A stretch of 62,141 bases of DNA, counting the filler, from Hausera hauseri (lineage: Eukaryota): the NCBI GenBank assembly GCA_046269625.1. It is 12 parts of 12 records of this genome, joined end to end, with 100 filler letters (N's around TTAATTAATTAA, not from the genome) between each part and the next. Parts side by side here need not be neighbours in the genome. Positions count along the whole stretch, not along the records: positions 52,605 to 57,859 come from JBJURY010297834.1; 11 more parts are not named here. One strand, 5' to 3'. The notes under the pieces were generated by a model. It had not been told where the DNA came from. It worked only from the letters and a program-made list of their open reading frames with translations, and ran no database searches. The translations under genes and the position numbers were made by a program. Below, piece by piece: positions 30,847 through 61,684 of the stretch (position 1 is the stretch's first letter; every line of letters starts with the position of its first letter).

Positions 30847-31459
30847 ATTTTCATGGAATATCTGGGCATCATGTGAACCATTTGATACAGAATATGTGTA
30901 TATTTCACATTTTTCAATGTTNNNNNNNNNNNNNNNNNNNNNNNNNNNNNNNNNNNNNNNNNNNNTTAATTAATTAANNNNNNNNNNNNNNNNNNNNNNN
31001 NNNNNNNNNNNNNNNNNNNNNTCATACTTTTCCAAACATTATAAAAGCTGGCTGGGTTCATGAATTCTAGATCGTATCGAAACAATACTGATTAAGTGAA
31101 AAAATAAAATGGTATCTTACGAAACAAATCTAACACTCCCGTCCAACTTTAACAAATGCGATGCCACTGGGCACCATTTTACTCTTATCACGATTTGATA
31201 ATTATTTTGTATTGATTTTTTTTCGACAATTATTCAAATGCATCTTTTTTTTAATTCGTGCTTTAATTTCTAATTTGCATGTCAAATAGGCAGAGCCGAT
31301 GTCGGCTGTTAGATAAAAACCAGAAGTTTTTAAGTGACGGGTGTAGAGCCAGAGTTATCTCCAGTTGAACATAATCGAAGCCTGTAGTGGTTATCTTGCA
31401 GGAATATTATATGCTCGAGTCAGTAAAATAAAAAGAAACATATGACTAAAGTGCTCCAT

Positions 31460-38506: not shown

Positions 38507-39115
38507 TTATTCATGGAAAATACGATAATCAACACCATCCTTTGTTATAGCCCTAATACGAACAACACCACCACTGTGACCATCTCTACTTATTGCCAGG
38601 AAAACAGCCTTACGCACCATTTCTATACATTCTTCCTTATTCATATTTTCTCTGTATTCATTGTCCAAAAACCCATAAATGAAAGTACTACCCGATCCAC
38701 TGATTGCCACTGATTCTCGTTGCAACATTCCTCCAAGTGGAATTGAGTAAAGTTGACCACCTTTCACGTCATCATATCCACCTACAATTATCCCAGCAGA
38801 CAATCGATCTCTATATTCATAACAAAGATTTTTGAAAACAGTTGCAGCATGCAGAACAGTTGGTTCGGTATCAAATTGCATGGCATGCAAATTGAGGCGG
38901 TATTTTACTATGTCTGCCAATGCCTGAGTATCGGCTGCTGAACCTGATCGACAACAATAGATTGAATCTCGGAGTTTTGTCAATTTATCACTGACTCGAT
39001 TTGAAATATACGATCCTCCAGATGTTCTTGAATCGGCCCCAATTACTACACCACCATCGAATGCAATGGCAACTAATGTTGTTCCCATACTGATTGGTTC
39101 TGATGAGTTGTACAT
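38507..39115 (-). CDS. PSMB6: Proteasome subunit beta type-6 (beta1), 202 aa, intronless
   Basis: Propeptide ending MG|TTLVA (catalytic Thr1), GADSRTS, CRSGSAADTQ, SGSGSTFIYG, RDGHSGG; ATG at 39115. Confidence 0.93.
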   Translation of the reverse strand: MYNSSEPISMGTTLVAIAFDGGVVIGADSRTSGGSYISNRVSDKLTKLRDSIYCCRSGSAADTQALADIVKYRLNLHAMQFDTEPTVLHAATVFKNLCYEYRDRLSAGIIVGGYDDVKGGQLYSIPLGGMLQRESVAISGSGSTFIYGFLDNEYRENMNKEECIEMVRKAVFLAISRDGHSGGVVRIRAITKDGVDYRIFHE

Positions 39116-39979: not shown

Positions 39980-42880
39980 TTGACGAGCTCTGGTGTCCAA
40001 TATATAAGCTTTTTCTTCGGCCCTGCTCCTAGTTGAGCGAAAGGAGCAGTTAACTGACTGCAGTGTGGGACGTATTTATGGACAAAATGTAAAGTCCCAA
40101 GAAAACTGCGCATATCAGTAGTGGTTTTTGGTGTCTCTATGTTTCGTAGCTGATGGATTCTACCAGGCTCTGGACTGTGACCGTCAGGTGTGATGACGTG
40201 GCCAAGGAAATGTGCCTTTTTCTGAAAGAAGGAACATTTAGAAAAGTTCACTTGCAAATTGTGGTTGTGCAAGAGTTGGAAAACTAGTCTGAGATGTTCT
40301 TCGTGTTGTTTGGGTGATGCAGATGCGACTAGTATGTCATCAATGTTTGTATATAAAAATGGCAAGCCTGAAAGAACTGAGTCAATGTGCCGTTGGAAAG
40401 TTTGTGCTGCGTTCCTTAAACCAAACGGCATGAATGCGTATTCGAAAAGACTGTAAGGTGTTATAATGGCCGTTTTTGGTATATCTTCTGGTGCTACCGG
40501 TATTTGGTGGTAGGCTTTTTCGAGATCTATGGTTGAATAAATCGTAGTCTTGTATAACGAATGCAATATATCCTTAATCAACGGTAGAGGATAAGCATCC
40601 ATGGTAGTGATATTATTAAGTTGTCAATAGTCGCCGCATGGACGGAACGAGCCATCTTTCTTTGGGACGACGTGGAGTGGTGATGCCCATGGTGATTTAG
40701 AGCGTTTTATGATGCCGGCTTGCTCGAGTGCAGAGAATTCCGCTTGTACTGCCTGTCGACGGCGTGGTGAAAGTGGGCGGAGTTTCTGTTTAACGGGCCT
40801 AAAGTTTTCTGTGACGATGCGATGAATCGTCGTGTTAGCCGGTCGAAATTCTGGGTCTTTTTTATTGTGTGAAAACAAGACTTGACTAAGTATTGCTGCA
40901 TTTCTTGGCTAAGCATAGTAAAGGATGTTTTTGTCACGGCAATGGTTTGATTGGACTTAGCATGTGAAATGCTAGAGATTGAATCGTCTAAATCGTCCTT
41001 GTGAACGCTTTTTTGTTTCTCTGTTACTGAACTGTAACAAAATGTTTGATTATTTATATGGGTATTAATCGCGTCCTTATTTGCGTTAGTTGAAGGTTCT
41101 TTTAATATCGATTTTATAAGTGAAATAGGTTGCGTGACTTGTTGGTTATTTAAAGAGGTGGGTTTTGTTGGACTGCTCTTGATGATCTGACGTTGCCTAC
41201 AATCTACAAAGAGGTTGTAGAAAGATAGGAAATCAGATCCAAGTATTGGCGATTGTGTCGGCAACGATGAATGTCCAATTGAAAATGTCGGGGAATGATG
41301 GTTACGTGAATGAAACTTTGGATGTGCCAAAAATGTGTAAAGCTTGGCCGTTTGCCGTGTATAGTTTGATGTTAGACGGTGAGATGGATAGTGTTTTGAT
41401 GGATGGTGGTAATGAAGAAACAGTAGCTTCTGAGTCAATGCGAAAGTTGATTGGTTGATTTGAATTGGACGTTAAGGAGGCTTTTAATGTAAAAACAGCG
41501 TTTGTGCGGCTGTAGCAATTACGAGGGTAGCCTTTGCCAGCCTGCGCCGGAACATCTGGCGGCTTTATCAGTTTTTTGGATAGAAGGATTTGGTGACTCA
41601 GGAGAATTACGAATGGATTGGTTAAGTCGACTGGAAAACGTAAAACCGTCGACGCACTTCAGGGTTTTGTTGCCGAACCTATTATGGTAAATGCAAACGA
41701 TATCGGATTTTTGGAAGGCTTATGTATAGAATTTACACCCAAGGCAACATTTGCTGGATTGGTTTTTCAATTTATTGTGATAATAGCACATCATAGGTCG
41801 AGTAGGGGACCTAGCGAATCTAGAATTTTGTGATGAGGCACGGCTATGATTAGGTGTGAATCGATTTCGTCGCAGCATGGATAACTTGTCCAGTTTGGAA
41901 GTTAGAGCAGAAATGGCTTGGTGTATTGCAGTGTTTTCAGCTCGGCGAGTGTTTATTTGATTACTCAGCGCTAAGATTTCATCATTGTGTGGTGTTATAG
42001 GCGGTTGCAATGTGGCTTCGACGATAGGAGTATGATGTGTATTTAGTATATCGTAACTTTTATCAGCCAGTTGTGCTAACTTTTCTAACGTAGCGGTATC
42101 TTCAAATACTGTTAGTAAAGCGCGTATTTCCTTCGGTAGTGATTGAAGGAAATATCTGCGCAATAAATCGGCGTTATTGGTTTCATTTACTCCAAACTTG
42201 CTTAATTGAGTCAAGGATGTTTGTAAAAATTCAGATGGTTTTAATGTGCCTATTGTGTTTTCATTGAAATATTTCTGGATGATGTTACCAGATAAGGTTC
42301 GGTGAGTTTTAGTACGGCGTTGAAAAGTGTTTCGTATGGGTCTACTGTCTGAAAAATATCGGAAAGATTTGGTAGTAGTGACTTAAGGTTGGCTGGTAAA
42401 AGTATTAATAGGCTATTGGCTTTGAAGAAAGGATCACTGACCTTATTTGATTTTAACCACTGCGCATGGAATTCTAGCCATGTACGACTGGAGTGTTGTT
42501 TATTTGTAAAATAGTCGACACAAGTGAAATTGACCGAAGAGGATGCTGCAGGTGGGACTGAAGGAGACTACTTTAGCGTAACATGTATGGTGGGAATGTC
42601 AATAAAATCTTGTTGTTCCAGAGAAGATGCTTTTGAGTCAGATTTGCCTAGTAAACATTAATGTGCAGCTAGTATAGGCGTCAAAGATGAGCGTGTATAG
42701 TTGGTAATAATATCGGATTGCTGCACAAAGAATCCGTTAAAGCTGAGACGGAAATTAGTCTGTAATGCTTCTCGTTGTAGAGCCCCGAACAAATGTGCGA
42801 TGGTTGCTGTTTGGTGTATATAGTGTGTATGTGTGTTTATTTTTAAGTGAGAGTTAAAAAAGTGAAGTTTGCAAATATGT
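39980..42880 (-). mobile_element. Ty3/Gypsy (Mag-like) UBL-gag, protease and RT; degenerate; same family as 52640-57859
   Basis: SSRTWLEFHAQWLK, LLRRYFLQSLPKEIRALL, CYYHNK..C..GC, SPWASPLHVVPKKDGSFRPCGDY, MPFGLRNAAQTFQR, NIDDILVAS. Confidence 0.92.
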
Positions 42881-43284
42881 CGGGTGTGCAGATATGTTTA
42901 TTTTGTAATAGAAGAGAAATAAAGATGAAAGTGTGTGTCATTTTAGGGGTACAATGCGTCACCGGGGACAAGGTCGCACCAAAAGTCCCTATATCGTAAT
43001 GACTGATCTTTTTAACCAGAGGAATCGGAACGGCAGTCGAGCACGAGATCATTGGGTTTATTTGTTGTACATCACGTAACCGAATTGTTATTGACTGAAT
43101 AAAATAAGGTTGAGGTGGAATAAACCGTTTTTGAAATTTTGAAATTATCTTTATGGTTCCGATAGTCGATTTCGAAGTTTCGGGTTTGTTTATTCTAAAA
43201 TTCGATCGAAAATATTCAAAAACAGTTAGAAATTCAGCAATTTCAACATGGTGTAAATATTCACGGACATATATATATATTTAG

Positions 43285-43480
43285 CAAATGCTGAATATTT
43301 CGTCTGAAAATAGTTCCCTTAATGTATATATCTCCTTTTGATGGCAAACATTTTTCAGAAATAACATTTAATAGTGTTGATTTTCCACAACTATTCGGTC
43401 CAATAATAGCCGTAATGTTTAAATATTTAAAAATGGTCGATACATTACGTGGTACTGTTTTTCTCGGTGAATTGACTGTA
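43285..43480 (-). pseudogene. ABC transporter NBD fragment (Walker A)
   Basis: My translation: RNVSTIFKYLNITAIIGPNSCGKSTLLNVISEKCLPSKGDIYIKG. Confidence 0.8.
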
Positions 43481-44649
43481 AAATACTATTATACTGTCTC
43501 GACGACTCACCAATTTTATTGCCTGTCGATGAGTATTTTTCCAACGCCCTATAGGTATTTTCTGTCGCTTGCTCTTATTTTTTTAAGAAATTTGCGAATC
43601 ACATATTGTAGTTTGAAATCGGCGAAATTTCGAAGTAAAATCGGAATTATGTATATGCTGTGATGTGTTGATTAAATGGTATATTCAACCTTAACGTTAA
43701 ATGATATGGCTGAGTTTGTATTGACTCTGGTCACGATTAGCAAATACTTCACTAATGATTCATTGTTCTCAATAAACAGCGAGGTTTGGCCAATGTCAAA
43801 TATTGGGGAGGTACTTGAAATATGCATAAAATAATTTGCATTCTTGCCTAATCCGTATGTATAGGGATGGAGAATTTGCGATGTTAAAACGATGGATAAA
43901 TAGTACGGTAAGTTATTTGGGCTTATTCGAATTCGACAATGACCACTACGTATAATGAAATAGGATGTACGTGTATAACAAAATTCAAAAGTAGTGGCTG
44001 CCGAGAATGTATTAAAATTGTTAGAGTTTTTGATAAATTTGGGCACAACTTTTTATTTCCAATATATTTACTATATGCTACTGCAAAATATATAATAGTC
44101 TTACATAGTTCTCCTTTACTCAAAGCCACTTTTNNNNNNNNNNNNNNNNNNNNNNNNNNNNNNNNNNNNNNNNNNNNTTAATTAATTAANNNNNNNNNNN
44201 NNNNNNNNNNNNNNNNNNNNNNNNNNNNNNNNNTGTAAGAAATAAGTAAAATAGCTGTTGTAGTTTCGTAAAACAGTGCAGCTTGAGCTAGTTTAGTAAA
44301 TATGGTTTAGAACCAGTTTTTTAAAGAGAATAGTTTGTATCGGCCTTTAAAAAGGTACAGGCCGATGTTGGGTCCTCTGGAGTCAGTACTCCTTTACTTA
44401 TCATTCGTTTATGGAGGAAACATTCGAATTTCACATTTGTGACTTTTAGGTCAGACACAGTAATGATAAGAGAGAATGGAGTTGACTGTAAGGTTATGTC
44501 TAGTTCTTTGATGACTTTCTTTTATACTATTTGTGTGGTCACTATTCTTGTGACGACATGTATGATGCTGGTCTTATTAGGGTAGTTGTTGTTATTTCTT
44601 TTGGAAATCTTTCTATTATATCTGGTCCCTCTGATGCTTTTGACCATGT

Positions 44650-46440
44650 CCATTTGTAATTTGATTTCCATAGGTTCAATACCATATAGTATATTCTCTA
44701 TCGAAGGATATGGGGCAGCATAAATAAGGATTTTGATAATCTGGTTTACATTTTATCGTGTCAGTTTTATTAAATATCCGGTATTCTAAAATTCGATGTT
44801 TGAATTGAAATGTCAGGTTGCGCTGTTACACAAGGTCATTCTTTTTAACTTTTGTGTAGAACATAACAAGGAAATCTGGTTTATTGAAGTAATATATTGT
44901 ACCAGGAAACGAATAATATGATCTATGCCATTTTCCATTTGTCCTTTTCCCGACCGCATATTGAATTCTATACGATATGTCATATGAAAGTACACACAGA
45001 CATGAACAATGGTTGGCATATATATATCACAAAATTCTGGAGTGGCCACTTGTGATGTTCATACTTTCTATATATGTATGCAACATGATCTTGTCTCCAT
45101 GTTTGAAATTATGTGGCTTAGCTTTTTCGTCATATCAGTTTTTATATTCTTTCTGACAAATCTTTATGTTGTGCAGCTAAATCCCATACATATCCTAGAT
45201 TTTCTTTTAACAGCTCTCNNNNNNNNNNTCTCTATATTCCATAAATTTCAAATGTGAGATTTGTGTTTTAAAAACCAAATCAATTGACATGAGCGTCTCT
45301 GAGGTACATCAAATATAACGGAGCCTCTTGCATCAGGATGAACGGTATTTCTGATAACGTATAAACAAGGTTTGATATTCATCCTAATCATCTTGATGTT
45401 CATTGACCATCGTGGCTGGCATAGTGAGGATTCCATTGAATTTTTCTACTGTTCCGTAGATTTGCGGATGATACAGCGTTGTCTTTAAATGTAATATTCG
45501 GAATGCCTTTGAAATTTTCGCCATGACTTCTATAAAATTTAGAGCTTGGTCTGTTAGTAAATTGGATGGTGTTCCATAATTAAATGCAGTTTCTTCTACA
45601 AATGCGTGAGCAATAGTTTGGGCTTTCTAGACTGGTGTTGGGGTTACGACTGGTTGTCTGGAAAATAAGTCAACAAACACTAAGTTATACTTATTTCCTT
45701 TTAATGTCATAGTGTGCCTAGAATGTCCATTACTGAAAATTCCATTGGACATTCTAGTGATTTAAGAGGTACTTTGACTTTTGAGCCCACATTCTTCTTT
45801 ATGCACAAATGGGGCAACTTTTACACCATTCTTGCACCTATCTTGACATGTTGTACCAAAAATATTTTCTTTTCAGTATGCCCAATGTTCTTTTTACTCA
45901 TTGATGTCCTCCGAGCATACCATCATGGTATTTGGTCATTAGTAACTTTATGTCTTCTTGAGGGACAACTACAACTAATTTTCCCTTCTGGTTATTGTAC
46001 AGTACTTCATTCCTTGTTTCGCAGTTTTCAGCAAATTTCACCAGATGAGCATGAAGATTGGTATCATTTGGTACCGTTTTCTTTTGTACATATTATTTAA
46101 TTCCTTTTATTTGTCTATCATTTTGTTGTTTTCTAACAATGATTTTTCTTTTTCTGTAATACTCCAAACGCCTGGTTTATCCGCTGATTGTTGAAGGTCT
46201 GTATCTTCAGGAATTCTTGTTTTTCCAGTTTTGTATTCGAATTTCAAATTATAAGGCTGGAGGAGCATAGCCTATTTCATTAAACGGATGTTTGGATTTT
46301 TGTGCTTCTTCAACCACTGTAGTGGTTTCTGATCAGCGTATATGACAATTGGTTTTGTTTCTGACAAATACGGACCATATTGCTCCAGTGCATATACAAT
46401 TGCGAGTAATTCTCGTTCAATGGTAATAATTTCTTTCATA
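44650..46440 (-). pseudogene. Ty3/Gypsy pol remnant: RNase H and integrase; PR and RT absent
   Basis: TIERELLAIVYALEQYGPYL..YADQKPLQWL; GNKYNLVFVDLFSR; YGTPSNLLTDQALNF. Confidence 0.85.
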
Positions 46441-46519
46441 TTTTCTTAACTTAACCTACAAACTTTTACGTTTCTTCCTACGAGCAGTGATTAAACTCCA
46501 TATCTTTTTTGTATTCAGA

Positions 46520-49258
46520 GATGAATTTGAGTGATACTTGGTTTTTCTTATTTTCTGTATTGGATGCACATTTCCGTTATCATTAAAGTGGTCTTTATTA
46601 TATTTTTTTGTATCCATTCAGCGTCCTTCTTTATTAGGAAACAAGTGGCTAAGAACAGAATCAGAACGTGGATAATTTTCCATGTACATCCTACAGCCTG
46701 TTTTATGCCATAGCCTTTGGTTATCATAGTACGGATTGTTTTTACAAAGGCGAATATAACAGAATCCTAACCATCCGGAATTAAACTGGCCAAACAACAT
46801 GTACCATCCCCATGCGGTAGCGAATATGTCTAGCGATTCTTCTTGCGTATTCGGGTCCCATCAGGTTTTCCCAATTAGCTTTTCCATCGTGATCGGCTAG
46901 AACTCTTCCATTTCTGTTGACTTTCAGTCTTTGTTGAGGAAACATCATTCTTCTATGGTTTTCCATATCTTGTTCAGAATATACGCACATCTTTACTAAA
47001 TTCATGTCAGGCTTATACTGTTGTTCAGTCTTTAAATTGATTCAGCTAATTCTTCGAGGCGGGATAATCTGCTCCTCTTTAGGCATTCGAAATGCTGGCG
47101 ACTTCCTATACGTACAATTTTGGTATATGTATAGTTTTCCACAAGATCCAACAGTATTCGAATAATTGGTTGTAAAAATCGTGGCTTGGTATTATACCAA
47201 ACTGATAATTCCATGATGCATTCATTAATTGGTCTTATCTTGACAGTTACTCTAGTACACTCGAACGTTACAAGAGTTCCTTCCATTGTTCGTGAAAATT
47301 TTCCTTCTGCATCAGGTAATTCAGCTTGATCCTTTATTATCCCATCCGTTATTGTGGACATATATATCCTGTTTCTGATTATTTCTCTGTTCAGCTTGCA
47401 ATCATTTAATACTATTTCTCCATACATAACATAAATATTCTCTTGTTGAAAGTGATAAATGAAATGAATCTTGTCAAAATATAGATGCGGTTTCACTTCT
47501 GATTTATCAATTTTTCTTTTTACTTCTTTTATTTTGATTGCTGACAAAAATATTCCTTTATAATTTGTTCGATATACTACTTGTGCGCATCTGTTCGTAT
47601 CACATTCTATTTTGAATTTCATTCCTTCTCTGGGATTCGCTGAATATACAGTGTCGCTCAAATTAATTGCATAATGATAATTTTGGGATAAGTTGGTGGT
47701 ATCTGTATTAGTTTTACGTGGTTTTCATATTTTTAAACATTGAAAGCAAGGTAGTTGTGTAAAATAATTGAATAAGTTGTATAAATGAGAATCAAATAAT
47801 TTTATTTTATTCGGTTTCTGCGTACGTTCAAATTATTTGCATAATTTGTGGTTTTAATGTTTTCCACGCAATGGATACACTCATAGCTACACAATAGTTG
47901 ATTACTAAGAAGTTTCATGAATGACCCAAACAGTTATTGCGTAGGAGTTACATCAGATTCAAAGTAGTGTTTCGCGTATTATTTCACGCTACAAATTCCA
48001 TAGAATTGTTCGAGATCTGAGACCAGGAAAATGTGAATGAAAACGATTTCTCTCACCCTGAACAGACCGTCTGCAAGCACGTGCTTCTAAGAATAACCCC
48101 AAAGCTACTGCTGCAAATATACAAAAGGCAGTTGGTTGTCAAGCAAGTACAGTGAGCCTCCCCGCTATCAGACGCTCACTTCGTCGCTCAAATCGATTGG
48201 AATAAACAGATCTCAAATCACTAACTTAGGTTTCTCGAATTCGTGTTTGTCTCCAATGGTGCCTTGTGCATCGTTATGTCAGTAGAGGATTGGAAAAAAG
48301 TATGACGAATTTTTAGAATAATTTTTAAAGATTTTTAAAAGAATTATTTTTCTAAGCTTACAATTCACTATATGGAGGTTGTGTTCACTGATGAGAGTAC
48401 TGTAGATGTGAACCCTGCGCACTCTCAGTTTGTACGACGCGGTCAAATGAGTCATTAAGTCTCGTGCATACCTCGCAACATCGTCCATATGTTCCTAGAG
48501 TCATGTTCTGGGGTTGGACGCTCGATCGTATCTGATATTCGATCCTGTCTGCTTTTTGATATTTCCTCTATACATTCGTCTTTTTGTTTCATTGAATTTT
48601 CCATTTCTCAATAAGGCTAGTTGACATTGATCCTTGTCAACTTCATATGCCATTATCGATTTACCCGTATTACATTCTTCATTGTAGTAATCACACTCAG
48701 GGAATGTCACCATTTTTCCTGATGATAATTCAAAAAGAGCATCATACTCTCAGCTCAACTTGGTAGTCCTCAATGGTTACCATATCGAACATTTCAACAT
48801 TTATATTGTAAGATTCTCCTTTACAATAGCCTGTTTTATCAATTGTTCCGACTATGAAAATTCTCTTATTGGTAACTTCTTTTTTGAGCCTTTAACCGAA
48901 TGCTACCGATGTTAATTTGTTTTGTCACAAAAACTATGCACATCCATTTACTTATCGAAAGTGGCTGGAATGGGGTGGTTGGCTCTACTATGGCTGCGTT
49001 TCCGTACCAGTAACCGCAAATAAAGTGGAAGTGATTCTTTCGTACAAAAGATTCTTTCGCTTTAGTTTTTACAAATTCTGACTCTTGGTAAACAATATTC
49101 TTTTAGTTAATGATGTCGGATTAGCGTACGGGCATTTTTCTAAATCCAACAGAAAATATATCGGAACTTCTTTGACTTGACTAGTCATAAGCAATAATTG
49201 AAGATGATCTTGACATGAAATTAAATAACAGAAGTATGTGTAGAATTTTAATTACCAT
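46520..49258 (-). pseudogene. Complete-length degenerate chuvirus-like glycoprotein, interrupted by an insertion at ~47649-48500
   Basis: MVIKILHILLLF..IIAYD; CAQVVYRTNY; CIMELSVWY..FLQPIIRIL; VYSEQDM..MMFPQQR; WGWYMLFGQFNSGWLG; C-terminal hydrophobic segments. Confidence 0.85.
47649..48200 (+). mobile_element. Tc1 5' fragment (TIR plus HTH region) inserted at TA in the glycoprotein gene
   Basis: TA|CAGTGTCGCTCAAATTAATTGCAT; SSVSRIISRYK..KNNPKATAANI..IRRSLR; copy A is uninterrupted at the equivalent site (~14410). Confidence 0.75.
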
Positions 49259-49259
49259 A

Positions 49260-51720
49260 GGCAGATCAAGATCAGATTACTGATTATGCTGTCTTTCTTG
49301 CTAGGGGTGTAGGTTTTCTTTTTGCCTGAACAACAGGTGCATAATCTTGTACCGTTGTTTGAATGAAACTATTGATCCATCTCTGCACTTTACTTACCTT
49401 TCTACATTAGTTGTCAATGCTCTTGTGGCTATTCCTATACTTTTTCTATTTCCTTGGTTTGAGTTCGAACCATTCATCACCATTATTTTATACAGGAGAT
49501 ATGATGTAGCTGTTATAATTTTACTTCTAGACATGCCTGTTCCCATCATTCTAGATAGTACATCTCTCTTGTATCTCACTTATTTTCTCATCTATAGGAA
49601 TATCTGCAAATTGCTCACTGATTTTTATTTCATTTATGCTTATCTGCATCAGTGAGTCTGGTATTTGTAAGTTTGTATTAAACTCAACAAACGCATTGTG
49701 CATTCTAGTTAACAAAGTTTGCAGTAATGTTGGCAATGAAACATTACCTTCATCATTCTCATCTTGAGTTATTAATAATCTTCGAACAACTTCATCGTCT
49801 CTTGCTTTTCTGCCTTTTAGTTGCTAGAGTTTTGTTATGCCTTTGGGTCTACCTCGATTTTTTCTATCAATTTGAGTCTGTTCTGATATAGGAATATTTG
49901 TTTCAATTCCTGTCTGCTGAACTTCATAATTTGGTTAAGTTTCTTATATCTTTCTGCCTAAATTCAGTAAGGGTTTCATCATTTATTTTTTGCCTAATTT
50001 GTCTGAAGGCAATTGCAAACAGGATCATATCTGGTTTCCCGCATACGTACTTCGCATATGGTTTCGTAACATAAGTGTCCGTTTATAAAAACGTAGTTCT
50101 AGCTCTCCTCGAGACTGGATTACCTCGTTAATCTTGTTTTTCAATGTAATTATCGTATATGACGACTTCATCCTTATAGCACGAAGGTCCTGATTGTGCA
50201 GTTTGAGAGTAACTACTATTTGAGGCTTTTTCCGACCGGTCTAACTCTTTCTGCATACCGATAAATTATATATCGTACAGGGTTTTGATGTGGACTTATC
50301 AGCAGCATATATTAGGAATAAGTTTAATAAATTAACACTGTTGATAGCTAACCGCAGGCAACAATAACATCGAAATAACCTGTCTGAATTGTTTGTCATC
50401 AATTAATTCTTGGTTAGCATAGCTTGATATTTTCCGAACTATTTCTGTACTGTTTTGATCCAAATCCACAAATAAGGTTTCTCCCTATTGTGCTGCTATT
50501 TTGACTTTCTTGTTTCTTATTCACTTTATCTTTTCACTGTTTATTTTTCATGCTTCCTTTACTTCCAGAAGGCAAATAGGGAATTTTTAAATGTTCTCTT
50601 ATAAAAGGTTTATCTTTTCTTTTGGCCTTTTGCACTTCAGCATCTGATTCTGAGGATAGATCCTTTCAAGTCTGACTACGGGAACAATAATTGAATTATT
50701 GTTATTCATTTTGTGTCGTTTTTCACAAATTTCTTGTTGCTTTAATTCTAACTATAGCACCTTTAATTCACCTACTTTATCTTCATCATCTATCATATTC
50801 GTTTTATAATCCTTCAATTTAGCTCTAACCTTTTGCTGCAGCTTTTCTACAGTATCCTCTGGTTCGGTATCCGGTTTCCTGTTCATTATCTGTAACAGAT
50901 ATATTACCAATCATCTCAATATTTTTCTTTTTCATGTTTGGCTGCCCTTCGTTAGGACAAGAACGGGCCATGTGTCCATATTTCTGACAGGCAAAATATA
51001 ATTTTTGTCCATTCTGATTAACCATTGGTTTCCTCATTGCTAGTTTTTGAGGCTGACTTTGAAAAGTAACCATCTAAGGGTGTCCTGGCCGGTTCTGAAA
51101 TTTTTTCAATTTCTCATCATTTTAGGAGGCCTTTGAACATTTTCAAGCCTTCCATACTTAACTTCAATCTTTCTGACTTTACTGACAGCTTCTTTATAAG
51201 TGTCAGGGTCAACAACACTAATATAATTCTGAATTTCTTTTGTTATTCCGTACAAGAACTGGTCTTAGAGAGCATCTTCTCTTATGTCTTCATCTGTATC
51301 GGCTGTAAGCCCATTTCTGAAGGACACATGCATATTCTTGCACGGTATCGCCTTTTCGCTGACGTCTGTTGAATTTCCCAATTCAACCTTTTCCTGACGG
51401 ATCTACTATGAGTTTTTCCTCCATGAGCTCTAAGGCTATCCCAATCAGCTTTATTCTGATCCTCTACTTTTGCGTAAGAACTGAGTGCTATCTTTGAGAT
51501 GAAGTGGAAGGCGTTTTATCCTGAGCTCGTCTGTCCATCCAAAGCTTTCTGAGTACATGTGGTACTGCATCAGGAATTTGCTGTAGTCCTGGTCTGGTTT
51601 GCCTTTCAATTTGTTCATCGACAAAACAATTGTGCATTCCTACCTAAGCTAGCACTTAATCCTAAACTAGACATCTGGGGTTTTTCTTATTCAGACCCGG
51701 ATGGTCTTCTAGCCGAGTCC
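49260..51720 (-). pseudogene. Copy B of gag-linker-UBL-AT-hook-helical region
   Basis: Collinear with 15200-17700; FACQKYGHMARSC; RKNRGRPKG. Confidence 0.8.
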
Positions 51721-51788
51721 GAATTTTCTGTTATATTATTAGCGTGTATATTACGTTTGTTTTACAAATTTGCAACGCCAGCGTGTCT

Positions 51789-51805
51789 CCTCACTCGGGG
51801 CAACA
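51789..51805 (-). promoter_or_regulatory. Primer-binding site (copy B)
   Basis: TGTTGCCCCGAGTGAGG at the position equivalent to 17806-17822. Confidence 0.6.
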
Positions 51806-52639
51806 GTATTAAGTTTAAAAATCTGACAGTCTGGGTCTCGGCCTTAAATTTAAAATTTACTTTATCTAATTAACAACCTGTGGGTTACTAAATGTTTTGA
51901 TCTTATTGTGTGAGTTGATCACTAGAAGGCACACTAGCGATACTCTCCTCTTATTTATCTTGATTTTAAACACTCGAACCTTAATGGACGGGATACCAAA
52001 GTCTGCCCTTAATTTTAGATATATGGTTTAATTCTACTCAAAAACAATTTAGTTTAACAAAAATATTATGATAACAGCTCGCTAACAGGATAAATAAATA
52101 AACAAATGAATGAATGAACAGATGATACTCAAAATTGTCACTTATTTCTGACAAATATTGTTTGAAAATCGTAATTAGTAAACTATACTCGAACCTAAAT
52201 TCCCAATTCGATTATTATACCATAATACATATATCAGGTGATATTCCGGATTTCAATCTCCTTCAAAATAATATTTGCAAAGGTGGCAGGTTGTACTCCG
52301 AGATTCAATATGCTAAATTAGCTGTGTTTCCTGTTACCAAATATATGTAAAGAAAATAAGACAAGGTCAAACTTTTAATCTATGGTAAAAATGATTTATA
52401 TAATCTTATCATTGGAAAATATAGAATAATCAATTACATCCATTATGCATTGTTTGTCAAGCATTAAACAAAATTAAGTATACTGTTGTTTTTAGTTACA
52501 TTCANNNNNNNNNNNNNNNNNNNNNNNNNNNNNNNNNNNNNNNNNNNNTTAATTAATTAANNNNNNNNNNNNNNNNNNNNNNNNNNNNNNNNNNNNNNNN
52601 NNNNATGAGCTAGCCTTGGACTGGTACTTTGCGTTATAG

Positions 52640-53779
52640 ATGCATATGGGATTGTCTACGGCATATCGTCATCGTAGAATCGACAGCCTAAAACACATTT
52701 CCTTGCATCTCTGCAAAATTTGTTATGATAAAAGCACATTATTTTATCATCTCTAGATTTAGAACGAGAAGAGTGCCTAAAAACCTGCGATTACGAGAAA
52801 TACGATTTTCGCTTCCTCTAGGCACGGATAAGTCACGGAGTTGGGCTGTGATCGCAGAAATTGCTTGTTGGTGGGTATCAAATTGTTTCTGCATTATGTT
52901 TAGTTGTTGTGCAAAAAAGTGTTGTCTGGCAGTGTGTAAGCAGTTTGCTGCGACTACTGGCTGCGAGTTATTAGACTGCAGAATATCAAAGATTTGTCTG
53001 CCAATAAGGCGACCTTTTCGAGAGCAGTAGAGTCATCTACTACAGTAAGCAAAGCTCGAATAGAGGTTGGCAAAGATGAAAGGAAATACCGATGAAGAAG
53101 ATCGACACTGTTTGTGGCAGTAACGTCCAAAGAGCTCAATTGAGAGATGGCAGTTTTAAGGAAATCCGATGATTTTTTTATTTCCGATGGCGTGTTCGTT
53201 AAAATATTTCTGGATTATGCTGTCGATGGAAGGGTCGGTGATATGTAGAACCGATTCATACAGCATATCATACAGGCTTGAAGAAGAGAATGTCAGCCAG
53301 ATTACTGATTTGCTGTTTGATGTTGGCTTGGAGTAATAGCAGCAAACTGTTAGCCCGCAGAAAGGGATCTGTAATATGATTAACTTTAAGCCATTGTAAA
53401 TGGAACTGTAGCCAGGTACGACTAGAATTCGTCTTGTCTAGAAAAAAATCCGTGCAGGGGAGATTTGGAGAAGTTGTTGGTGTGGTGTCGACAGGACGAC
53501 GACCAGATTTAGTCTTTGTTAAGTGTTCGATAGAAGGATCAAGGTCTGATCCACCACGGATGCGAAAATGGACAGTGAGAGTGATGGAATATTTCTCGGG
53601 TGCAAAAGATGAAAAAGAATCGTAAGGTTGCAAAGTTAGACCGTTGTGCATAAGATAAAAATTGGAGGAGCCAAAAAAAGGACCATTCAGTATAGAGAAT
53701 ATGAGCTGTTTGTTTGTGCGCAACCCTTAATGTGTGGATATGTTTAGTATTAGTAAAGATTAGAAAAGAAAAGGGACAT
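52640..53779 (-). pseudogene. Gag with an N-terminal ubiquitin-like domain ending RIRGG (53550); frameshifted
   Basis: FLIFTNTKHIHTLRVAHKQT..NFYLMHNGLTLQPYDSFSSF..TLTVHFRIRGG|SD; SSRTWLQFHLQWLK; CFYHNKFC..KCVLGC. Confidence 0.8.
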
Positions 53780-54305
53780 GGCCCAACGGGGGCGGGCACT
53801 CTCGGTCCCTCAACGAGAGAATCTTTTGTATGAGTGATCATCGTCGTAGGACGACCAGTACTTCGATACATTGTTAGCGGTAACAACTTCAAACATTCAA
53901 CTTTTTTACTGGATGCGAATCGTACTTTTGGTTTCAAAATGGTGGGTCGCAAATTGAATTCACCAATTGATACAGTTGTCATATTTTTGTTTAAATATGA
54001 ACGGTGGATTAACAGGCAGCTATTTTTGATGTGTAACATATTAATCCAACCGTTGCTGTAGCCACTGGCCATGAAACAGGATTTTGAAAGATGGACAGGT
54101 GAAAAACCGATGCGATGTGAACGTATAGATTAAGATGGCAGTCGGCTTCAAAAGATCAAAAGTCAATTTCGCGAAATTCAATTTTGCCAGATGATAGTAC
54201 AATTAAAACTGGTTTGTCAAAATCTGAAACATAAACGTCGGGCAACCAGTTTAAAAAAGTAATTGAGAAAGACAGACTAATTACGCAGATTAGTCTGTCT
54301 TCGTC

Positions 54306-56204
54306 TCATAATCCTATAGTGCAGTCGTCTGTAGTTGCAGAAATAAATCGTAATAATCCAAATAAGGCGTAGGATTTGAAAGTATCCGTTTTATGTATAC
54401 GATTATTCAAATATGTTTGAAATAATTCGTTAATGTAATTAACTCTCAGATATGACTTACCATTACTGTTTAATATTGTACTCGCTCTGAAGTTTCTTGA
54501 CCCTATCATCCATTCCAACCAAAATGTTGACTGATACGGACGAGTAACGTTGTATGTGATCGGTTTTAGAGAACACGACTTTTCAGTATTAATTGATTCT
54601 TTTAAGTGATTTAAGTTTGATTGAAGATGTTTGAAAAGAGACGTAAGACAATCTGTAATATTTCGAAACGACAATAAGTCTTTAGGCCTTATGTTTGGTT
54701 TCAGTGGTTTGCAAAACTTGACTGTTTCTACGTCCTTTTCGGTTAATAAATTAAGTAGTATGCAGAACATTAAATCCGAAACAGGAAATTGTCTAACCGA
54801 TAAAATTTGTTTAGTACATTTAAAAAATGAATCAAAAACGCTCAATTCATTTGTGCAATTCAATCCATCATTGCTTATTATGTTTTTAATGTCACTGTGA
54901 TCACAATAATTGTAATAAATAATGTAATCTATAACTGCTGTTCCAAATGTATAAAGTCCGGGAATATCGAGTGCTGAATAAGTCCTTACACCATTTAGAT
55001 CGTTTATGTAAGCAGTATCAACGCCAAACTGTTTGTAATGATCTTTAATATGAAAGTCCAATGCAAAAAAGATGATATTCCTAATGAACATTTGTTGATT
55101 TTTAGATTTACCAGGATTGATAGCAATTATGTTACCTCTGAGAACGTTTATAGCTTTATTAGCATGATTATTTAAAATTGGTAAAACATAGTATGGTGGT
55201 TGAACATCACCGATTTCATTATTGGTTATAGTTTTATTTTCATTTAATATTCCATTGTGCTGCGCTACAATGACATCAGATAAAAACTTTTTGGTATATG
55301 TTTTATATTCTTCACACATTATACTAAAACTCTCTTTGATAGCAATTCTGTCTTTGGATTTTAAACAACTAGAAAAATTATAATTATTGAGATTTTGATG
55401 AATAATTATTTCACAATATATCACATTTACCTCTTCTTTATCGTTATTTGAATCCAAATCATGAAACAAATCACTGCTTTCAAACGCCAATCCCGTACAA
55501 AAATTAGCTGAATTAACACCGTTTTGAATTTCTCGAATAAGACATTGAAAAAAGTTATTGAACGTTTCATAGCTTTCCATATCGATTGCATACACACTTG
55601 TCATTTCGGGGTGTGTTACGTGCGGATATACAATGGTCATTAGAATGATATTATTTCGTGTCTTTTTATTTTCGTACAGTATTGCTATTTCATGGTTTAA
55701 TGCTTTCTTCAATGGACAGTAATACTCATACACATTGTATATGAATTGCTCACAATTAACTGCATCGCCTACTGCAACGTCCTCCGCCAATTTAACAATA
55801 TCATAATGCCCATTATCCATTTTCTGAAGAATTCTCAATGGTTTGGTAAAGGCAAATTTTTCAATGACAAAATTGTAGATGTCGCTAAGAGTTTTGCTAC
55901 GAGAATAGCAACAAGTTACTTTGTTTTCTTTTCCACAAATAGAAATAGTAATGTTCAATGGTTGAACCTCAACGGTGTAACTATCGTGACTGAGTATCAC
56001 AAATCTTTCGAAAAGTTCTTGGTTATCACAATCCAGTTTGTATGTTTTCACAAGATATTTCCAAACTTCTTCCGGTACCAAATCGTAGTGATCATTCAAC
56101 AACATATCACCATTAACTTCTTTTGTTGCATCAAGCAATTTGCTGTTACTAATTGGTGGCAAATTTTTTCTTGTCATCCGTAACAAATATTTAAGTTGAT
56201 TCAA
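54306..56204 (-). CDS. Chimeric 632-codon ORF (first ATG 56177): USP4/11/15 DUSP-UBL, phosphagen kinase, CLU, BACK and probable further fragments
   Basis: PPISNSKLL..YDLVPEEVWKYLVKTY..VEVQPL; PLKKALNHEI..VYAIDMESYETF; GNIIAINP..QMFIRNIIFF..NDLNGVRTY..GLYTFGTAVIDY; NIISNDGLNCTNELSVFDS. Confidence 0.75.
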   Translation of the reverse strand: MNQLKYLLRMTRKNLPPISNSKLLDATKEVNGDMLLNDHYDLVPEEVWKYLVKTYKLDCDNQELFERFVILSHDSYTVEVQPLNITISICGKENKVTCCYSRSKTLSDIYNFVIEKFAFTKPLRILQKMDNGHYDIVKLAEDVAVGDAVNCEQFIYNVYEYYCPLKKALNHEIAILYENKKTRNNIILMTIVYPHVTHPEMTSVYAIDMESYETFNNFFQCLIREIQNGVNSANFCTGLAFESSDLFHDLDSNNDKEEVNVIYCEIIIHQNLNNYNFSSCLKSKDRIAIKESFSIMCEEYKTYTKKFLSDVIVAQHNGILNENKTITNNEIGDVQPPYYVLPILNNHANKAINVLRGNIIAINPGKSKNQQMFIRNIIFFALDFHIKDHYKQFGVDTAYINDLNGVRTYSALDIPGLYTFGTAVIDYIIYYNYCDHSDIKNIISNDGLNCTNELSVFDSFFKCTKQILSVRQFPVSDLMFCILLNLLTEKDVETVKFCKPLKPNIRPKDLLSFRNITDCLTSLFKHLQSNLNHLKESINTEKSCSLKPITYNVTRPYQSTFWLEWMIGSRNFRASTILNSNGKSYLRVNYINELFQTYLNNRIHKTDTFKSYALFGLLRFISATTDDCTIGL

Positions 56205-56683
56205 CCGAAATTACACCAACACTATTTCTTCATTTGATGATTCATTTGTTAATATTCTGACACCAATTTATGATTCCGTAACGTAGACAAAATGCATTTA
56301 AGAAAAGAAAATCCGAAACACCAAGAAAACTGTATTAATCAAATTCAATTTTTTTGTTATTAAAAATCTATATTCATCAATTACATATTTTCTAATTTAT
56401 GTGTATAATACAAACCAAACCTTATGAATTGTAACCTTTCATTGTAACCTTACAATCAAACAAGCATCAATCACACACAAAAAAATCATCTAATTCAATA
56501 AGAAAAAGAACGAATAAGAAAACACCCGAAAACTAAAATTGGCAACTATTGAATGTCCGTTACTGGTTCAAAAATTACAACGCAATTTCGTCACTATCAT
56601 CTTGCTTGAGATTGAAATAATTTTTTGGGATAGTGAAGATTTGATTGTTATCATATTGTTCATTATCTCCCTTTGGAAGAGGG

Positions 56684-57089: not shown

Positions 57090-57159
57090 AATTTGAATTT
57101 CTCGACTCCGGCGAGGAAAAGACCGCGCCCACGGCCGCGGCACCACATCACCTCCCCCC
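57090..57159 (-). promoter_or_regulatory. Polypurine tract (57148-57159) and start of LTR (TG at 57147)
   Basis: GGGGGGAGGTGA|TGTGGTGCCGCGGCCG just downstream of the integrase end. Confidence 0.8.
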
Positions 57160-57317
57160 GTGGCAGAATTGAAACTATGTAATAAAGAAAAATGAAGATA
57201 ATACGACTTACAACAACGAATCGCAACAGGAAATAAAGCTTGGTTTCTATTCAGTCTTAGTACGGGTTAGGCGTTGTGTGCCATCAAAGAAGTTTTCTTT
57301 GCTGTACGTGTTAAACG

Positions 57318-57859
57318 TTACTCTGCGTGGCTTACTTGATAGATTTGTAATGGGTTGTTGAACGATTTTTGTGATGGAGATGATAACGAATGTGGGTCAA
57401 GCGAGAAAGGAGATGAAGGTTGTGAGCATGATGACGGAGAGTGAAGTGAGATGGATGGAGGACATGATGATAATTGAGTGTAATCGAGCAGTGATTGCTT
57501 CAGTGGCGTAAAATCGTTTAGAAAGTCAGTTGAATTGCTAGCTGAGTCTGAATTAAGTGTAGAATTGCTATCTGGAATGTCGTCAATGAAGAAGGAAGGC
57601 TTCAGATTCGAAATATGGACGTTGCACGGTTTATCTTGGCGTAAGATTGTTGCTGTGTGAGATGAAAGATTCAACAGTTTGTACGGGCCAACATATTGAG
57701 GTCTAAAACCAGAAGGTGATTGATCTTTTAACCATACAAACTTGGCGGAGTATAAATCCTTCGGAATGTAGGATTTGTTGTGATTAAAGAGGCGGCAGAA
57801 TGAATCTGAGCTGACCTCGACGAAGTGAGATTGTGCCGCACGAATGTTTTCGTCTGCAG
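57318..57859 (-). pseudogene. Ty3/Gypsy integrase C-terminus (GPY/F module plus Ser/Pro tail)
   Basis: SYIPKDLYSAKFVWLK..RPQYVGPYKLL..NVHISNLKPSF. Confidence 0.85.
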
Positions 57860-58625: not shown

Positions 58626-61529
58626 TTAATAAAAGTTACCTCTAATTAATCTCTCAGCGTCAATTACTGAAAACAGCCAATATTTTAATTTTTTCAAAAA
58701 TAGTTTTAAAGGAAGCTCTGACAAACCACTAGGAAGCGTGTTGAATAGCCTCGGGGCAATGAAACTGTAAGTAAGGGAGATAGTGGTCCGAGAGGGCCGA
58801 GGAACAAAATAAGACATACCGCTTCTCAAATTGCTGGCGTAATCAGTTATTGATTGACGTTTTTGGTCACCACTACGTATAAAGAACATCCTTAGCACTT
58901 TATACACATATAAGTGTCTTAAAGGTAGTACATTGAGATCTTTAAAGATTGCAAAGGAAGGAGATGTCCTGGGTCTTTTATTAATAATTCTGACGAAGTG
59001 CTTTTGTAATAGGATTAAGTTTTTCATGTGACTTATATACGTACCCCCCCAAAACTCAATCCCATATTCCAACCTAGATTGAATCAAAGATGTGAATACA
59101 TTTTTAAGGATCAACCTAGGGCATAGGTCACGCAAGAAATAAAATTTCCTGATATATGACTGTAAACAATTATTTAATTCCCTGCAATGATCCTCCCAAC
59201 TAAGATTTTCATCCACATTTAAACCAAGATATTTTATTCTGGAGGAATAGGCTACCCCTGGACAGTCACAATTGGCCTCCAGATTCCGACATTTACAAGT
59301 CATTTGATGGCATGGAATAATATTGTAGTTATTTACTGTATTTATTCTGCTTAGATGGAAAATAATATACTTAGTTTTATTGAAGTTAATTAAGAGTTTA
59401 TTTTGGGCACACCATTCATTGATAATCACTAAATCACTAGAAATGCCCGACAGCACCCCTTCCACACAGGTACTCGAGTATGAGAGAGCAACATCATCGG
59501 CATAAGCTGTTATTTTTCCCTCGGTTTTTAAAGTAAAAATATCATTAATGAAAATACAGAAAAGAATCGCCGCCAGTACACTTCCCTGAGGTACGCCATA
59601 TCTAACAATACCAAAGCCGCTCAAATCTCCCTCCACACTCACACATTGTCTTCTTCCCGACAAGAAGGAAGTAAACCAGTTCAAGGGCATGCCCCTCACC
59701 CCAGCGTGGTACAGTTTATCCAATAAGATATCAATGTCCACCATGTCAAAGGCTGCCTTCAGATCCACAAATACACCCCCAGTCTTATGGCCTTCATTTA
59801 TGTCAGAATACACGCTGGAGAAAAAGGAGTTAAGAGCATCAATAGTACTCTTGCCACTCATAAACCCAAACTGTTTAACATTGAAAAAGTTGTTACTGTC
59901 CAAGTATGATATCAGGCGCTTTTTCATGATCTTTTCTATAATTTTCGAAAAAACTGATAAGAGAGAAATTGGTCTGTAATTTTCACATTTACGACGGTCA
60001 CCCTTCTTATATATAGGAATCACCTTTGCTACCTTCCATCCCTCAGGAAAATCTCCAGATTCAAAACTTAAATTTATTATAAACTTAAGAGGGGATACTA
60101 TATACAAAAAGGTCCTTTTCAGAAAATCAGAACTGACCCGATCAAGACCAGGTGATTTTTTGCTTTCAAGGGAATTGATAATAGTTATAATTTCATTTTC
60201 GTTAGTAGGAGTAAGATAAAAAGAGTTTGATGGGGCCTCCAAGCGATTTATATAATTTATATTTAATATATTAAGTTTATTGGAATCAGCAACGGAGAGA
60301 AAATGTTTATTAAATATTTCAGCCTGTTCTAAAGGGTTAGTTATAATTTTATTATCATCTTGCAGCTCCAGATTACCTCTATCTTTAATTTCGCCTATTA
60401 AATTTTTGATAACAGACCAATGCTTAGATGTATTTTTACTTTTAAAGTTGAATAAATTATTATAGTAAGCATATTTAGCGGTTTTTAATTCTGTATTTAA
60501 TTTGTTTCTATATCTAATGAAATGATTTTTTATATCAATATTATTTGGATGTTTTATCAGTAATTTGTATAAAAATTTTCTTTTTTCAATTTTATTATAT
60601 AAGTAGTCATTCATCCACGGCTGTATTTTTTTATTTTTATATTTGTCTGTTTTCCTGATTAGTTCTGTACAGAGACGTACGTACTTTCCAAGTCTGTCAG
60701 AAAAAAGTTGGGCCGCTGTAGAAGCGTTCCCACATAGTAATACATCAGTCCATTCCTCAGCCTCCAACAGGGGGCATAATCTATCGTAATTAATCATACT
60801 TATTGAAAAAGGTTTGTCAGCTGAGAGGGGAGTGCCAGGAACCATCTCCGTATTCACCATCACCTCCAATAAGGCGTGATCAGTAATACCGATCTGTCTA
60901 ACATTCATAGATATATCGAAAGTATAGTTTCTAGATTTTTTGAATCTAACAAAAATGTGATCAATGCATGACGACCCAAAACCATCCCCTCTTGTAGCTA
61001 TGTTAATATCATTCATCAAAGACAATCCATTCGCATACATCATATTCATGTAATTTTCAATTACATCACTATTCCCTGCTAGGTCCAGGTTCATGTCCCC
61101 GGCCATCAGGAGATTATCCACGCGAATATCATCCAAAATGCTATTCAATTCATCAATAAATACAATTGGGGCAACCCTGTGCAACCGATACACCAACAAA
61201 ATATGAATTTTAATTGATTTAAAGACACACGTTACTACAAGACAGTCAGCAGACGTCATTGAAGGCGTGTGTGTTAAAATATCAACATTTTTCTTTGCAA
61301 AAACAGCAACCCCACCCGACCTGTAACTATTATTGCATTTAAAGAAGCCGTTATAACCTGACAATTGATACAACAGTCTCTCACTATCATTGATCCAGAT
61401 TTCTGTTAAAAGTAACAGATCCGGTAAGCCACTGTAAGTGGTAGTCAAAGTAGCTATGAAATTATCAAAATTAGCCCTGAGGCTACGAATGTTTTGCATG
61501 ACACAAACTATCCGCCGGTTTTCACACAT
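58626..61529 (-). CDS. LINE ORF2: APE endonuclease plus reverse transcriptase, 967 aa, intact
   Basis: QNIRSL, TEIW, GDMNLD, IDHIF, TDH; KSPGLD, NYRPISLL, DLKAAFD, GVPQGS, YADD, KYLG. Confidence 0.96.
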   Translation of the reverse strand: MCENRRIVCVMQNIRSLRANFDNFIATLTTTYSGLPDLLLLTEIWINDSERLLYQLSGYNGFFKCNNSYRSGGVAVFAKKNVDILTHTPSMTSADCLVVTCVFKSIKIHILLVYRLHRVAPIVFIDELNSILDDIRVDNLLMAGDMNLDLAGNSDVIENYMNMMYANGLSLMNDINIATRGDGFGSSCIDHIFVRFKKSRNYTFDISMNVRQIGITDHALLEVMVNTEMVPGTPLSADKPFSISMINYDRLCPLLEAEEWTDVLLCGNASTAAQLFSDRLGKYVRLCTELIRKTDKYKNKKIQPWMNDYLYNKIEKRKFLYKLLIKHPNNIDIKNHFIRYRNKLNTELKTAKYAYYNNLFNFKSKNTSKHWSVIKNLIGEIKDRGNLELQDDNKIITNPLEQAEIFNKHFLSVADSNKLNILNINYINRLEAPSNSFYLTPTNENEIITIINSLESKKSPGLDRVSSDFLKRTFLYIVSPLKFIINLSFESGDFPEGWKVAKVIPIYKKGDRRKCENYRPISLLSVFSKIIEKIMKKRLISYLDSNNFFNVKQFGFMSGKSTIDALNSFFSSVYSDINEGHKTGGVFVDLKAAFDMVDIDILLDKLYHAGVRGMPLNWFTSFLSGRRQCVSVEGDLSGFGIVRYGVPQGSVLAAILFCIFINDIFTLKTEGKITAYADDVALSYSSTCVEGVLSGISSDLVIINEWCAQNKLLINFNKTKYIIFHLSRINTVNNYNIIPCHQMTCKCRNLEANCDCPGVAYSSRIKYLGLNVDENLSWEDHCRELNNCLQSYIRKFYFLRDLCPRLILKNVFTSLIQSRLEYGIEFWGGTYISHMKNLILLQKHFVRIINKRPRTSPSFAIFKDLNVLPLRHLYVYKVLRMFFIRSGDQKRQSITDYASNLRSGMSYFVPRPSRTTISLTYSFIAPRLFNTLPSGLSELPLKLFLKKLKYWLFSVIDAERLIRGNFY

Positions 61530-61684
61530 TTGAGAGCAAAGTAAGATATATTTTTCTCTTAATTTCTTTTATCAATATATAAATAAGAGTGAAGATAAAT
61601 AAAAGTTCTACTATAACGATATAGTTCCATAGTTCCCTAGTATATGTTAAAGTAAAAACAAAACTGACCCATCCTCCGAAATCC

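Follow-up and report, generated by a model that had tools for sequence, protein, structure and literature searches.

A predicted ubiquitin-like leader ending in Gly-Gly precedes Gag in a CsRn1-like retrotransposon lineage and is probably a site of release by host deubiquitinases

This study focused on retrotransposon copies from Hausera hauseri in which a ubiquitin-like (UBL) leader ending in Gly-Gly stands directly before Gag. These copies represent a CsRn1-like lineage that appears to encode Gag behind an in-frame UBL leader, and a host deubiquitinase (DUB) probably cuts the product after the Gly-Gly. Comparison of predicted proteins shows the order leader, Gly-Gly, linker and Gag, with conservation of the Gly-Gly, across subfamilies, and the in-frame fusion of such a leader to Gag is, as far as the compared sequences go, family-wide. 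The window, meaning the whole stretch of 62,141 nucleotides that was analysed, is made up of 12 contigs, each 4-8.6 kb long, with N-spacers between them, and pieces of transposons are abundant in it. The features that bear on the UBL-Gag elements are collected in Table 1.

Table 1. Coordinates of features related to the UBL-Gag elements in the window
Feature	Position	Strand	Remarks
Gly-Gly, predicted cleavage site	53550..53555	-	Codons adjoin the Gag N-terminus; sole invariant leader columns in a 5-sequence alignment
Leader, C-terminal half, ending TLTVHFRIRGG	53550..53678	-	In the Gag frame; SDE2 match; top match of the leader profile
Leader, N-terminal half (predicted strands 1-2 and helix)	53680..53775	-	Frame differs from that of the C-terminal half
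Gag: 31-aa linker, capsid, coiled coil, CHCC knuckle at 52736-52683	52668..53549	-	In several frames; tblastn with P0011/P0002/P0013/P0008
Open frame of 118 codons upstream of leader	53776..54129	-	In the frame of the leader N-terminal half; five Met codons
634-codon intronless ORF with host-gene-like pieces	54306..56210	-	DUSP, arginine kinase N-terminus, CLU, BACK; possible cargo, link unproven
Integrase C-terminal frame (to 57318), purine tract 57159-57148, TGT at 57147	57147..57859	-	By eye, no Pfam match
Paralog leader	42643..42870	-	Shares a frame with its Gag; stop codon 42660-42658, Gly-Lys 42648-42643
Paralog Gag, protease-like motif (by eye), reverse transcriptase	39980..42642	-	RVT_1 E 3.7e-28; Ty3 RT

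Leader and Gag in the window and among relatives

The main UBL-Gag copy lies on the minus strand of the contig at 52605-57859. A stop-free minus frame (53726-53271) reads ...YSITLTVHFRIRGG followed by SD..., that is, the Gly-Gly and then the N-terminus of Gag, and in a longer reading ...NFYLMHNGLTLQPYDSFSSFAPEKYSITLTVHFRIRGG followed by SDLDPS...CTDFFLD.... The leader begins with its first strand at 53775, its frame breaks at about 53690-53678, and the N-terminal half shares 48% identity over 42 aa with residues 635-676 of the relative P0011 (tblastn/BLASTP, pairwise E 2e-5). The initial annotation had described about 75 aa of ubiquitin-like sequence with RIRGG directly before Gag; the half that carries the Gly-Gly does lie in the Gag frame, while the leader as a whole does not occupy one frame in this copy. 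An ATG at 53779 was rejected as a start codon, since it belongs to the third frame, in which a stop follows after 9 codons, and the open frame above the leader showed no homology to the upstream regions of the relatives. The pieces of Gag are 39-68% identical to P0011, and the contig ends within or just after gag. Given the frame break in the leader and the spread of Gag over several frames, the window UBL-Gag copy is a decayed remnant.

The best PDB sequence match of the 59 residues up to the Gly-Gly was the ubiquitin-like domain of Caenorhabditis elegans SDE2 (E 0.043), in an alignment that reaches through the Gly-Gly of the window; the other three of the four PDB matches at E<10 were unrelated. 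The pattern [RK]xxGG occurs only 18 times in the 124,278 six-frame residues of the window. A profile built from the leaders of four relatives ranked the window frames first and second of 1921 six-frame pieces (E 3.7e-6 and 0.013), followed by an unrelated piece at E 0.018, with the paralog leader only at 1.8. Neither the window leader nor any of the relatives gave a Pfam ubiquitin match. The UBL resemblance of the stretch is more than chance.

Relatives were found by a phmmer search of the 152-residue window frame against 1.84 billion representative proteins, which gave 10 matches at E<=0.001. Four of these (P0001, P0002, P0005 and P0008) are Gag relatives that agree with the query at 53, 42, 35 and 37% of the matched positions; P0011-P0013 come from the same clusters (4 clusters, 7 sequences). 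The remaining six (P0003, P0004, P0006, P0007, P0009 and P0010) are repeat-rich, bacterial-surface-like proteins that match the leader region only; they were regarded as chance and dropped before counting. All four relatives carry leader and Gag in one predicted ORF, their reading frames being those of gene calls on predicted proteins, and all have [R/K]-x-x-G-G at 18-37 residues before the first Gag motif, with leaders ending in RLCGG, RLLGG, RLLGG and KAYGG. In the intact predicted relatives, then, the leader is in frame with Gag, as the initial annotation had supposed, and its Gly-Gly is conserved in 4 of 4 relative clusters as well as in sister copies of the paralog described below. Three of the four matches included part of the leader; P0008 was found through Gag alone (query 80-147), so its Gly-Gly is not a product of the query.

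The Gly-Gly (G172/G173) stands out within an otherwise fast-changing domain. No other leader column is invariant in the five-sequence alignment, and identity between subfamilies is 16-51% over the final 45 residues of the leader, compared with 35-60% over the first 70 of Gag, such that leaders diverge faster than Gag; the number of lysines per leader ranges from 0 to 7. The residue after the Gly-Gly is S in the window and S, M, G or N in the relatives, none of which has Pro there. Proline after the site blocks cleavage by DUBs. At the position that we take to be equivalent to Arg72, in ubiquitin numbering, a basic residue is present in five of six subfamilies. Further searches were unproductive: word-index searches returned none of 300 candidates for the window ORF against longer proteins, only P0005 itself among 1566, and only P0008 among 7999 for alignment A3, while locus scans of viral, metagenome and prokaryote collections yielded 58, 100, 166, 592 and 28 pattern matches, not one of which was confirmed. 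The known set of relatives is therefore small.

The second locus is a paralog on another contig. The motif that the initial annotation gave as NFRLSFNGFFVQ..CLLGKSD occurs there in the Gag frame, the two dots standing for a stop codon and the site itself reading Gly-Lys. Two sequencing runs (X1 and X2, neither recorded as RNA) cover part of the stretch (shares of 0.41 and 0.24), with 129 and 21 contigs aligned to the leader and linker of the paralog (42550-42800). Where the window copy has Gly-Lys, 3712 of 3720 depth units of X1 (14 contigs) and 138 of 138 of X2 (6 contigs) read Gly-Gly, and the stop is absent from 3676 of 3695 and 87 of 87 depth units, respectively. As nearly all sister-copy depth carries Gly-Gly and lacks the stop, the exception reflects decay of the copy in the window, and the paralog was rejected as a true member without Gly-Gly. 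Among the variants listed, none affects the first Gly or the Cys that takes the place of ubiquitin Arg72 in this subfamily, and no length variants occur in the leader among the rows listed (150 contigs). Third codon positions of the Gag frame account for 18 of the 29 listed variable places (p 0.0014 against one third), or 14 of 23 (p 0.006) once places private to the window copy are removed. The bias points to purifying selection on the leader; the places are not independent in phylogenetic terms, and many of the rows come from a single contig of high depth, so it serves as support and is not a dN/dS.

Predicted folds and the type of element

Fold models were made of relatives only, from alignments of 4-5 sequences and with mean pLDDT of 53-58. 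In the AlphaFold2 model of P0008 (4 sequences, mean pLDDT 57.9), residues 16-91 form a strand-strand-helix-strand-strand-strand arrangement, for which all Foldseek matches listed were ubiquitin or UBL chains (E from 5.5e-4, five at E<=0.001, with TM by target reaching 0.86); against ubiquitin folds this leader reached a VIA Z of 11.2, with an rmsd of 2.3 over 75 residues. The P0002 model (5 sequences including the window frame, mean pLDDT 52.9) placed a UBL at 96-173, with Z up to 8.3, a value of about 8 being near the level that the tool calls common, an rmsd of 2.1 over 70 residues, and Foldseek E values of 0.02 or more. Its capsid, at 206-383, matched MLV CA-CTD (Z 10.4, rmsd 2.5 over 81), PEG10 (Z 9.8), Copia (9.1) and dArc1 (8.3). 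Atlas models of P0008 (10-100, TM 0.72-0.78) and P0001 (630-708, TM 0.65-0.72, below the naming bar) matched mostly ubiquitin clusters, the feature search giving leads only under 0.9. When the five-sequence profile was compared with the PDB, all three matches at E<10 were ubiquitin-containing (E 0.093-1.9), spanned the whole leader with the Gly-Gly aligned, and were headed by a ubiquitin-eS31 chain; phmmer of P0008 alone against the PDB gave nothing at E<1. In structural alignments the leaders are 15-22% identical to ubiquitin. The modelled leaders of P0008 and P0002 match ubiquitin folds, which agrees with the initial annotation, and the relatives are predicted to have a beta-grasp (ubiquitin) fold in the leader and a retroviral-type capsid fold in Gag.

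A ubiquitin fold need not imply cleavage, and the leader might stay attached as an integral UBL docking domain, matrix-like or directed to proteasome receptors, p97 or sorting factors, with the Gly-Gly acting as a flexible hinge. The structural matches of the models include the uncleaved UBLs of midnolin, Dsk2, Rad23 and BAG6 at tied Z, and most integral ubiquitin-like domains are described as stable (PMC13572447). This is nevertheless unlikely: the Gly-Gly is invariant where the domain surface is not, it lies exactly at the C-terminal position of ubiquitin, and the linker past it is already long and variable, so that a hinge would not need two fixed glycines.

Nor does the leader look like a neutral relic of a captured ubiquitin- or SDE2-like host mRNA, or like a chance resemblance in a 5' untranslated region. 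The loci do contain other captured-looking host fragments, matches at the sequence level have weak E-values, and the copy in the window contains frameshifts. Such an origin would, however, leave unexplained why the same leader occupies the same place in subfamilies whose Gag proteins are only 35-60% identical, the invariant Gly-Gly, the preference of variation for third codon positions, and the constant length of the paralog leader over the rows listed from 150 contigs; ubiquitin folds were, moreover, predicted independently in three relatives. This explanation is largely refuted and can be regarded as highly improbable.

The elements are best described as CsRn1-like Ty3/gypsy retrotransposons, not as proven CsRn1 members. 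A CX2HX9CX3C (CHCC) knuckle, which defines the CsRn1 clade (PMC2582038), was found in the window at 52736-52683 and 41788 and in seven of seven relatives, six of which (P0002, P0005, P0008 and P0011-P0013) have two in tandem. The paralog Gag also has two knuckles of this type, at 41788 and 41695, the second imperfect. Weak matches to DUF7041 (PF23055; E 1.9e-4 to 0.012, all below the curated cut-off) were obtained in P0005, P0013, P0008 and P0002, and none in P0001/P0011 or the window pieces. A Ty3-type reverse transcriptase downstream of Gag and a protease-like motif occurs on the paralog contig only, where the best PDB matches of the enzyme are Ty3 reverse transcriptase (E 4e-43). No LTR repeat pair was found for the UBL-Gag elements, of which contigs of 4-5 kb carry part of each. 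Matches to a tRNA-Trp primer site at <=3 mismatches numbered 44, against 48 expected, in these decayed copies; none lies upstream of the main leader, and one with 3 mismatches lies upstream of the paralog, at 42981-42970. The window contains no tRNA genes.

Compared with the CsRn1 clade (CsRn1, PwRn1 and AgCR) as described in PMC2582038, the shared features are the CHCC knuckle, a helical capsid, the order Gag-protease-reverse transcriptase, and the Ty3-type reverse transcriptase, with a possible further resemblance in the weak DUF7041 matches. The UBL-Gag elements differ in the ubiquitin-fold leader with its Gly-Gly, in the doubled knuckles of six of seven relatives, and in that no clear tRNA-Trp primer site was found. 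The word 'ubiquitin' has no occurrence in the main text of that paper.

Upstream sequences and other elements of the window

Sequences above the leader are long, open and heterogeneous. The 634-codon ORF of the main contig combines a DUSP domain (Pfam E 6.6e-7; USP11 DUSP-UBL E 0.0026, hence USP11/15-like) with pieces of an arginine kinase N-terminus (5.3e-8), CLU (3.6e-12) and BACK (6.1e-4), and its C-terminal 344 aa had no PDB match under E 1.3. Near-identical pieces are present in X1, and a variant with an in-frame 12-base deletion in both X1 and X2. The ORF shares the frame of the Gag start, but stops intervene and it is not continuous with the leader. P0001 and P0011, the closest relatives, of 996 and 1051 aa, are single predicted ORFs in which Rrp44/DIS3-like (E 1e-4) and CNOT1 (E 5e-19) pieces precede UBL-Gag; these may be real cargo or a join made by the gene caller. 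Upstream of the paralog, the region 42843-44052 (minus strand) contains an ABC-transporter fragment at 43264-43485 (ABC_tran E 8.6e-10), and a frame open for 145 codons runs up to the start of the paralog leader.

Above the leader, the open frame extends over 118 codons in the window, at least 93 in P0002, at least 129 in P0013, at least 626 in P0011 and 15 in P0008, the lengths outside the window depending on gene calls (P0005 was called from an internal Met). At local composition, the open frames of the window, P0002 and P0013 would each arise by chance with a probability of about 1e-3 to 1e-4. P0002 has no Met between residue 1 and one right after the Gly-Gly. The open upstream frames and this gap suggest a distant or non-AUG start.

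It is conceivable, if doubtful, that the UBL-Gly-Gly unit is a built-in release adaptor, which would let translation run from far upstream through captured host-gene mosaics with host DUBs still freeing Gag. If so, the elements would be stable, heritable vehicles of gene shuffling that co-express host-protein chimeras with a ubiquitin-like tag at the end, the fixed equivalent of the inserts of cytopathic pestiviruses.

The same upstream region bears on whether the site might be cut by something that the element itself encodes, either its aspartic protease or a DUB of its own. A protease-like motif was seen by eye between Gag and reverse transcriptase of the paralog; retroviral-type proteases, however, need neither a folded ubiquitin domain nor a Gly-Gly. 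As to a DUB, the upstream ORF in the window includes a USP11/15 DUSP-UBL piece and other transposons encode OTU/Ulp1 proteases (PMC2836005), but no DUB catalytic domain was present in the ORFs scanned. Cleavage by an enzyme of the element is accordingly most improbable, and a host DUB is preferred.

The contig at 52605-57859 has the order integrase, possible LTR, mosaic ORF and UBL-gag, an arrangement consistent with a tandem or collapsed element as well as with two separate insertions. The TGT at 57147 is a possible LTR start, and the integrase end may belong to the UBL-Gag element or to a neighbouring one. In X1 and X2, 3452 and 176 contigs aligned to this contig. Depth, which should not be read as copy number, peaked over gag and integrase, was intermediate in the leader and reached its minimum across 54189-56652.

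Several other mobile elements were noted elsewhere in the window. A piece of a Monjiviricetes-type fusion glycoprotein was found at 47032-47724 (minus strand, E 6.3e-12), in one of two contigs (13874-17951 and 44234-52504) that are about 69-74% alike over >3 kb; the contig that carries it is possibly an envelope-bearing retroelement or an endogenous viral element. A DNA polymerase B piece of the protein-primed, Polinton-like type lies at 2753-3679 (plus strand, DNA_pol_B_2 E 3.4e-12), and two pieces that look related, 66% alike, occur at 5061-6697 and 28866-30496. A LINE retains an intact 980-codon ORF for endonuclease and reverse transcriptase (58626-61568, minus strand), and AT-rich reverse transcriptase ORFs, Penelope-like by eye, occur at 31427-33276 (plus strand, RVT_1 E 1.7e-5). 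Another, decayed gypsy element in 18052-26641 has an integrase zinc finger and a 231-base pair of direct repeats (18956-19186/23753-23983, 84% alike). The window also holds an intronless proteasome beta-1 (PSMB6) gene at 38507-39115 (minus strand), for which the closest PDB chains are mammalian, ahead of yeast and protists; on this basis the host is probably an animal, and a microsporidian was rejected.

Release of Gag and its significance

A leader that is UBL-shaped and has a conserved Gly-Gly end would likely be cut by host ubiquitin-removing enzymes, and by analogy with known fusions we infer cleavage after the Gly-Gly by a host DUB. The precursor would be cut by a USP-type enzyme, in the manner of SDE2 and the ribosomal ubiquitin fusions. 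SDE2 is cleaved after its Gly-Gly by USP5, and a Gly-to-Ala mutant is uncut (PMC13572447, PMC5131917). The likely gain would be that Gag and Gag-Pol acquire an N-terminus that is clean and competent for assembly, regardless of the upstream sequence and of where translation begins, perhaps along with the benefit to folding or expression that ubiquitin fusions bring; the released leader would most likely be discarded. The initial annotation had also expected a defined Ser N-terminus, which did not hold, as the residue after the Gly-Gly is variable. Since this new N-terminal residue is not conserved, a particular N-degron or Ser terminus is unlikely to be the gain, and removal of everything upstream of Gag is the more likely one.

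Compatible with cleavage, the purpose might lie in the released UBL, which could be conjugated to host proteins or titrate DUBs or ubiquitin readers, as had been suggested in part by the initial annotation. Cleavage would expose a free C-terminal Gly-Gly, five of six subfamilies retain a basic residue where ubiquitin has Arg72, and free SDE2-UBL binds USP5 via its Gly-Gly (PMC13572447). Set against these points are the identity to ubiquitin of only 15-22%, divergence faster than that of Gag, the Cys at position 72 in one subfamily, the varying number of lysines (0-7), and the failure of excess SDE2-UBL to inhibit USP5 cleavage in vitro (PMC13572447). The high sequence conservation of conjugated modifiers such as ubiquitin, NEDD8 and SUMO was not seen, there being no Pfam ubiquitin match and leaders being as little as 16-51% identical to one another. 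A purpose of this kind seems quite unlikely, and a conjugatable or decoy UBL is unsupported so far.

Release of Gag by a host DUB would place the elements beside several known systems. SDE2/Sde2 likewise has a divergent N-terminal UBL ending in Gly-Gly at the head of an unrelated protein (PMC13572447, PMC5131917), but there the payload is a splicing factor instead of a retrotransposon capsid, and a conserved N-degron lysine (K78) follows the Gly-Gly (PMC13572447), at a residue that is variable in UBL-Gag. With S, S, M, G or N in place of Lys, and with Gag as payload, the proteins do not belong to the SDE2 family proper. The ubiquitin- and FUBI-ribosomal fusions (UBA52, UBA80/eS31 and FAU) share the precursor design of leader, Gly-Gly and payload; unlike theirs, the UBL-Gag leader is not ubiquitin, evolves fast and resides in a selfish element. 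Among mobile RNA genomes, ubiquitin inserts precede NS3 in cytopathic BVDV, which similarly sets a ubiquitin or ubiquitin-like unit before a protein of its own, often with mosaic inserts upstream (PMC13517609). Those inserts are recent host captures in single isolates, whereas the UBL-Gag leader is old, diverged and fixed in its lineage. Transposons with OTU/Ulp1 proteases (Ginger1, Mutator and Helitron) also engage the ubiquitin system, and are the nearest case found in the literature, but they carry the protease where UBL-Gag elements carry a predicted substrate (PMC2836005). Searches of openly available full texts found no UBL-Gag retrotransposon; prior annotation in subscription papers, Repbase Reports, Dfam or GyDB is possible.

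Retrotransposon Gag is normally processed by the protease of the element itself. If the proposed cleavage occurs, a retroelement would hand a maturation step to the ubiquitin system of its host, and host DUBs would therefore be candidate dependency or restriction factors. The leaders would also form a new natural class of cleavable UBL leaders, next to SDE2, FUBI and the ribosomal fusions, whose highly diverged variants could reveal what a DUB minimally needs.
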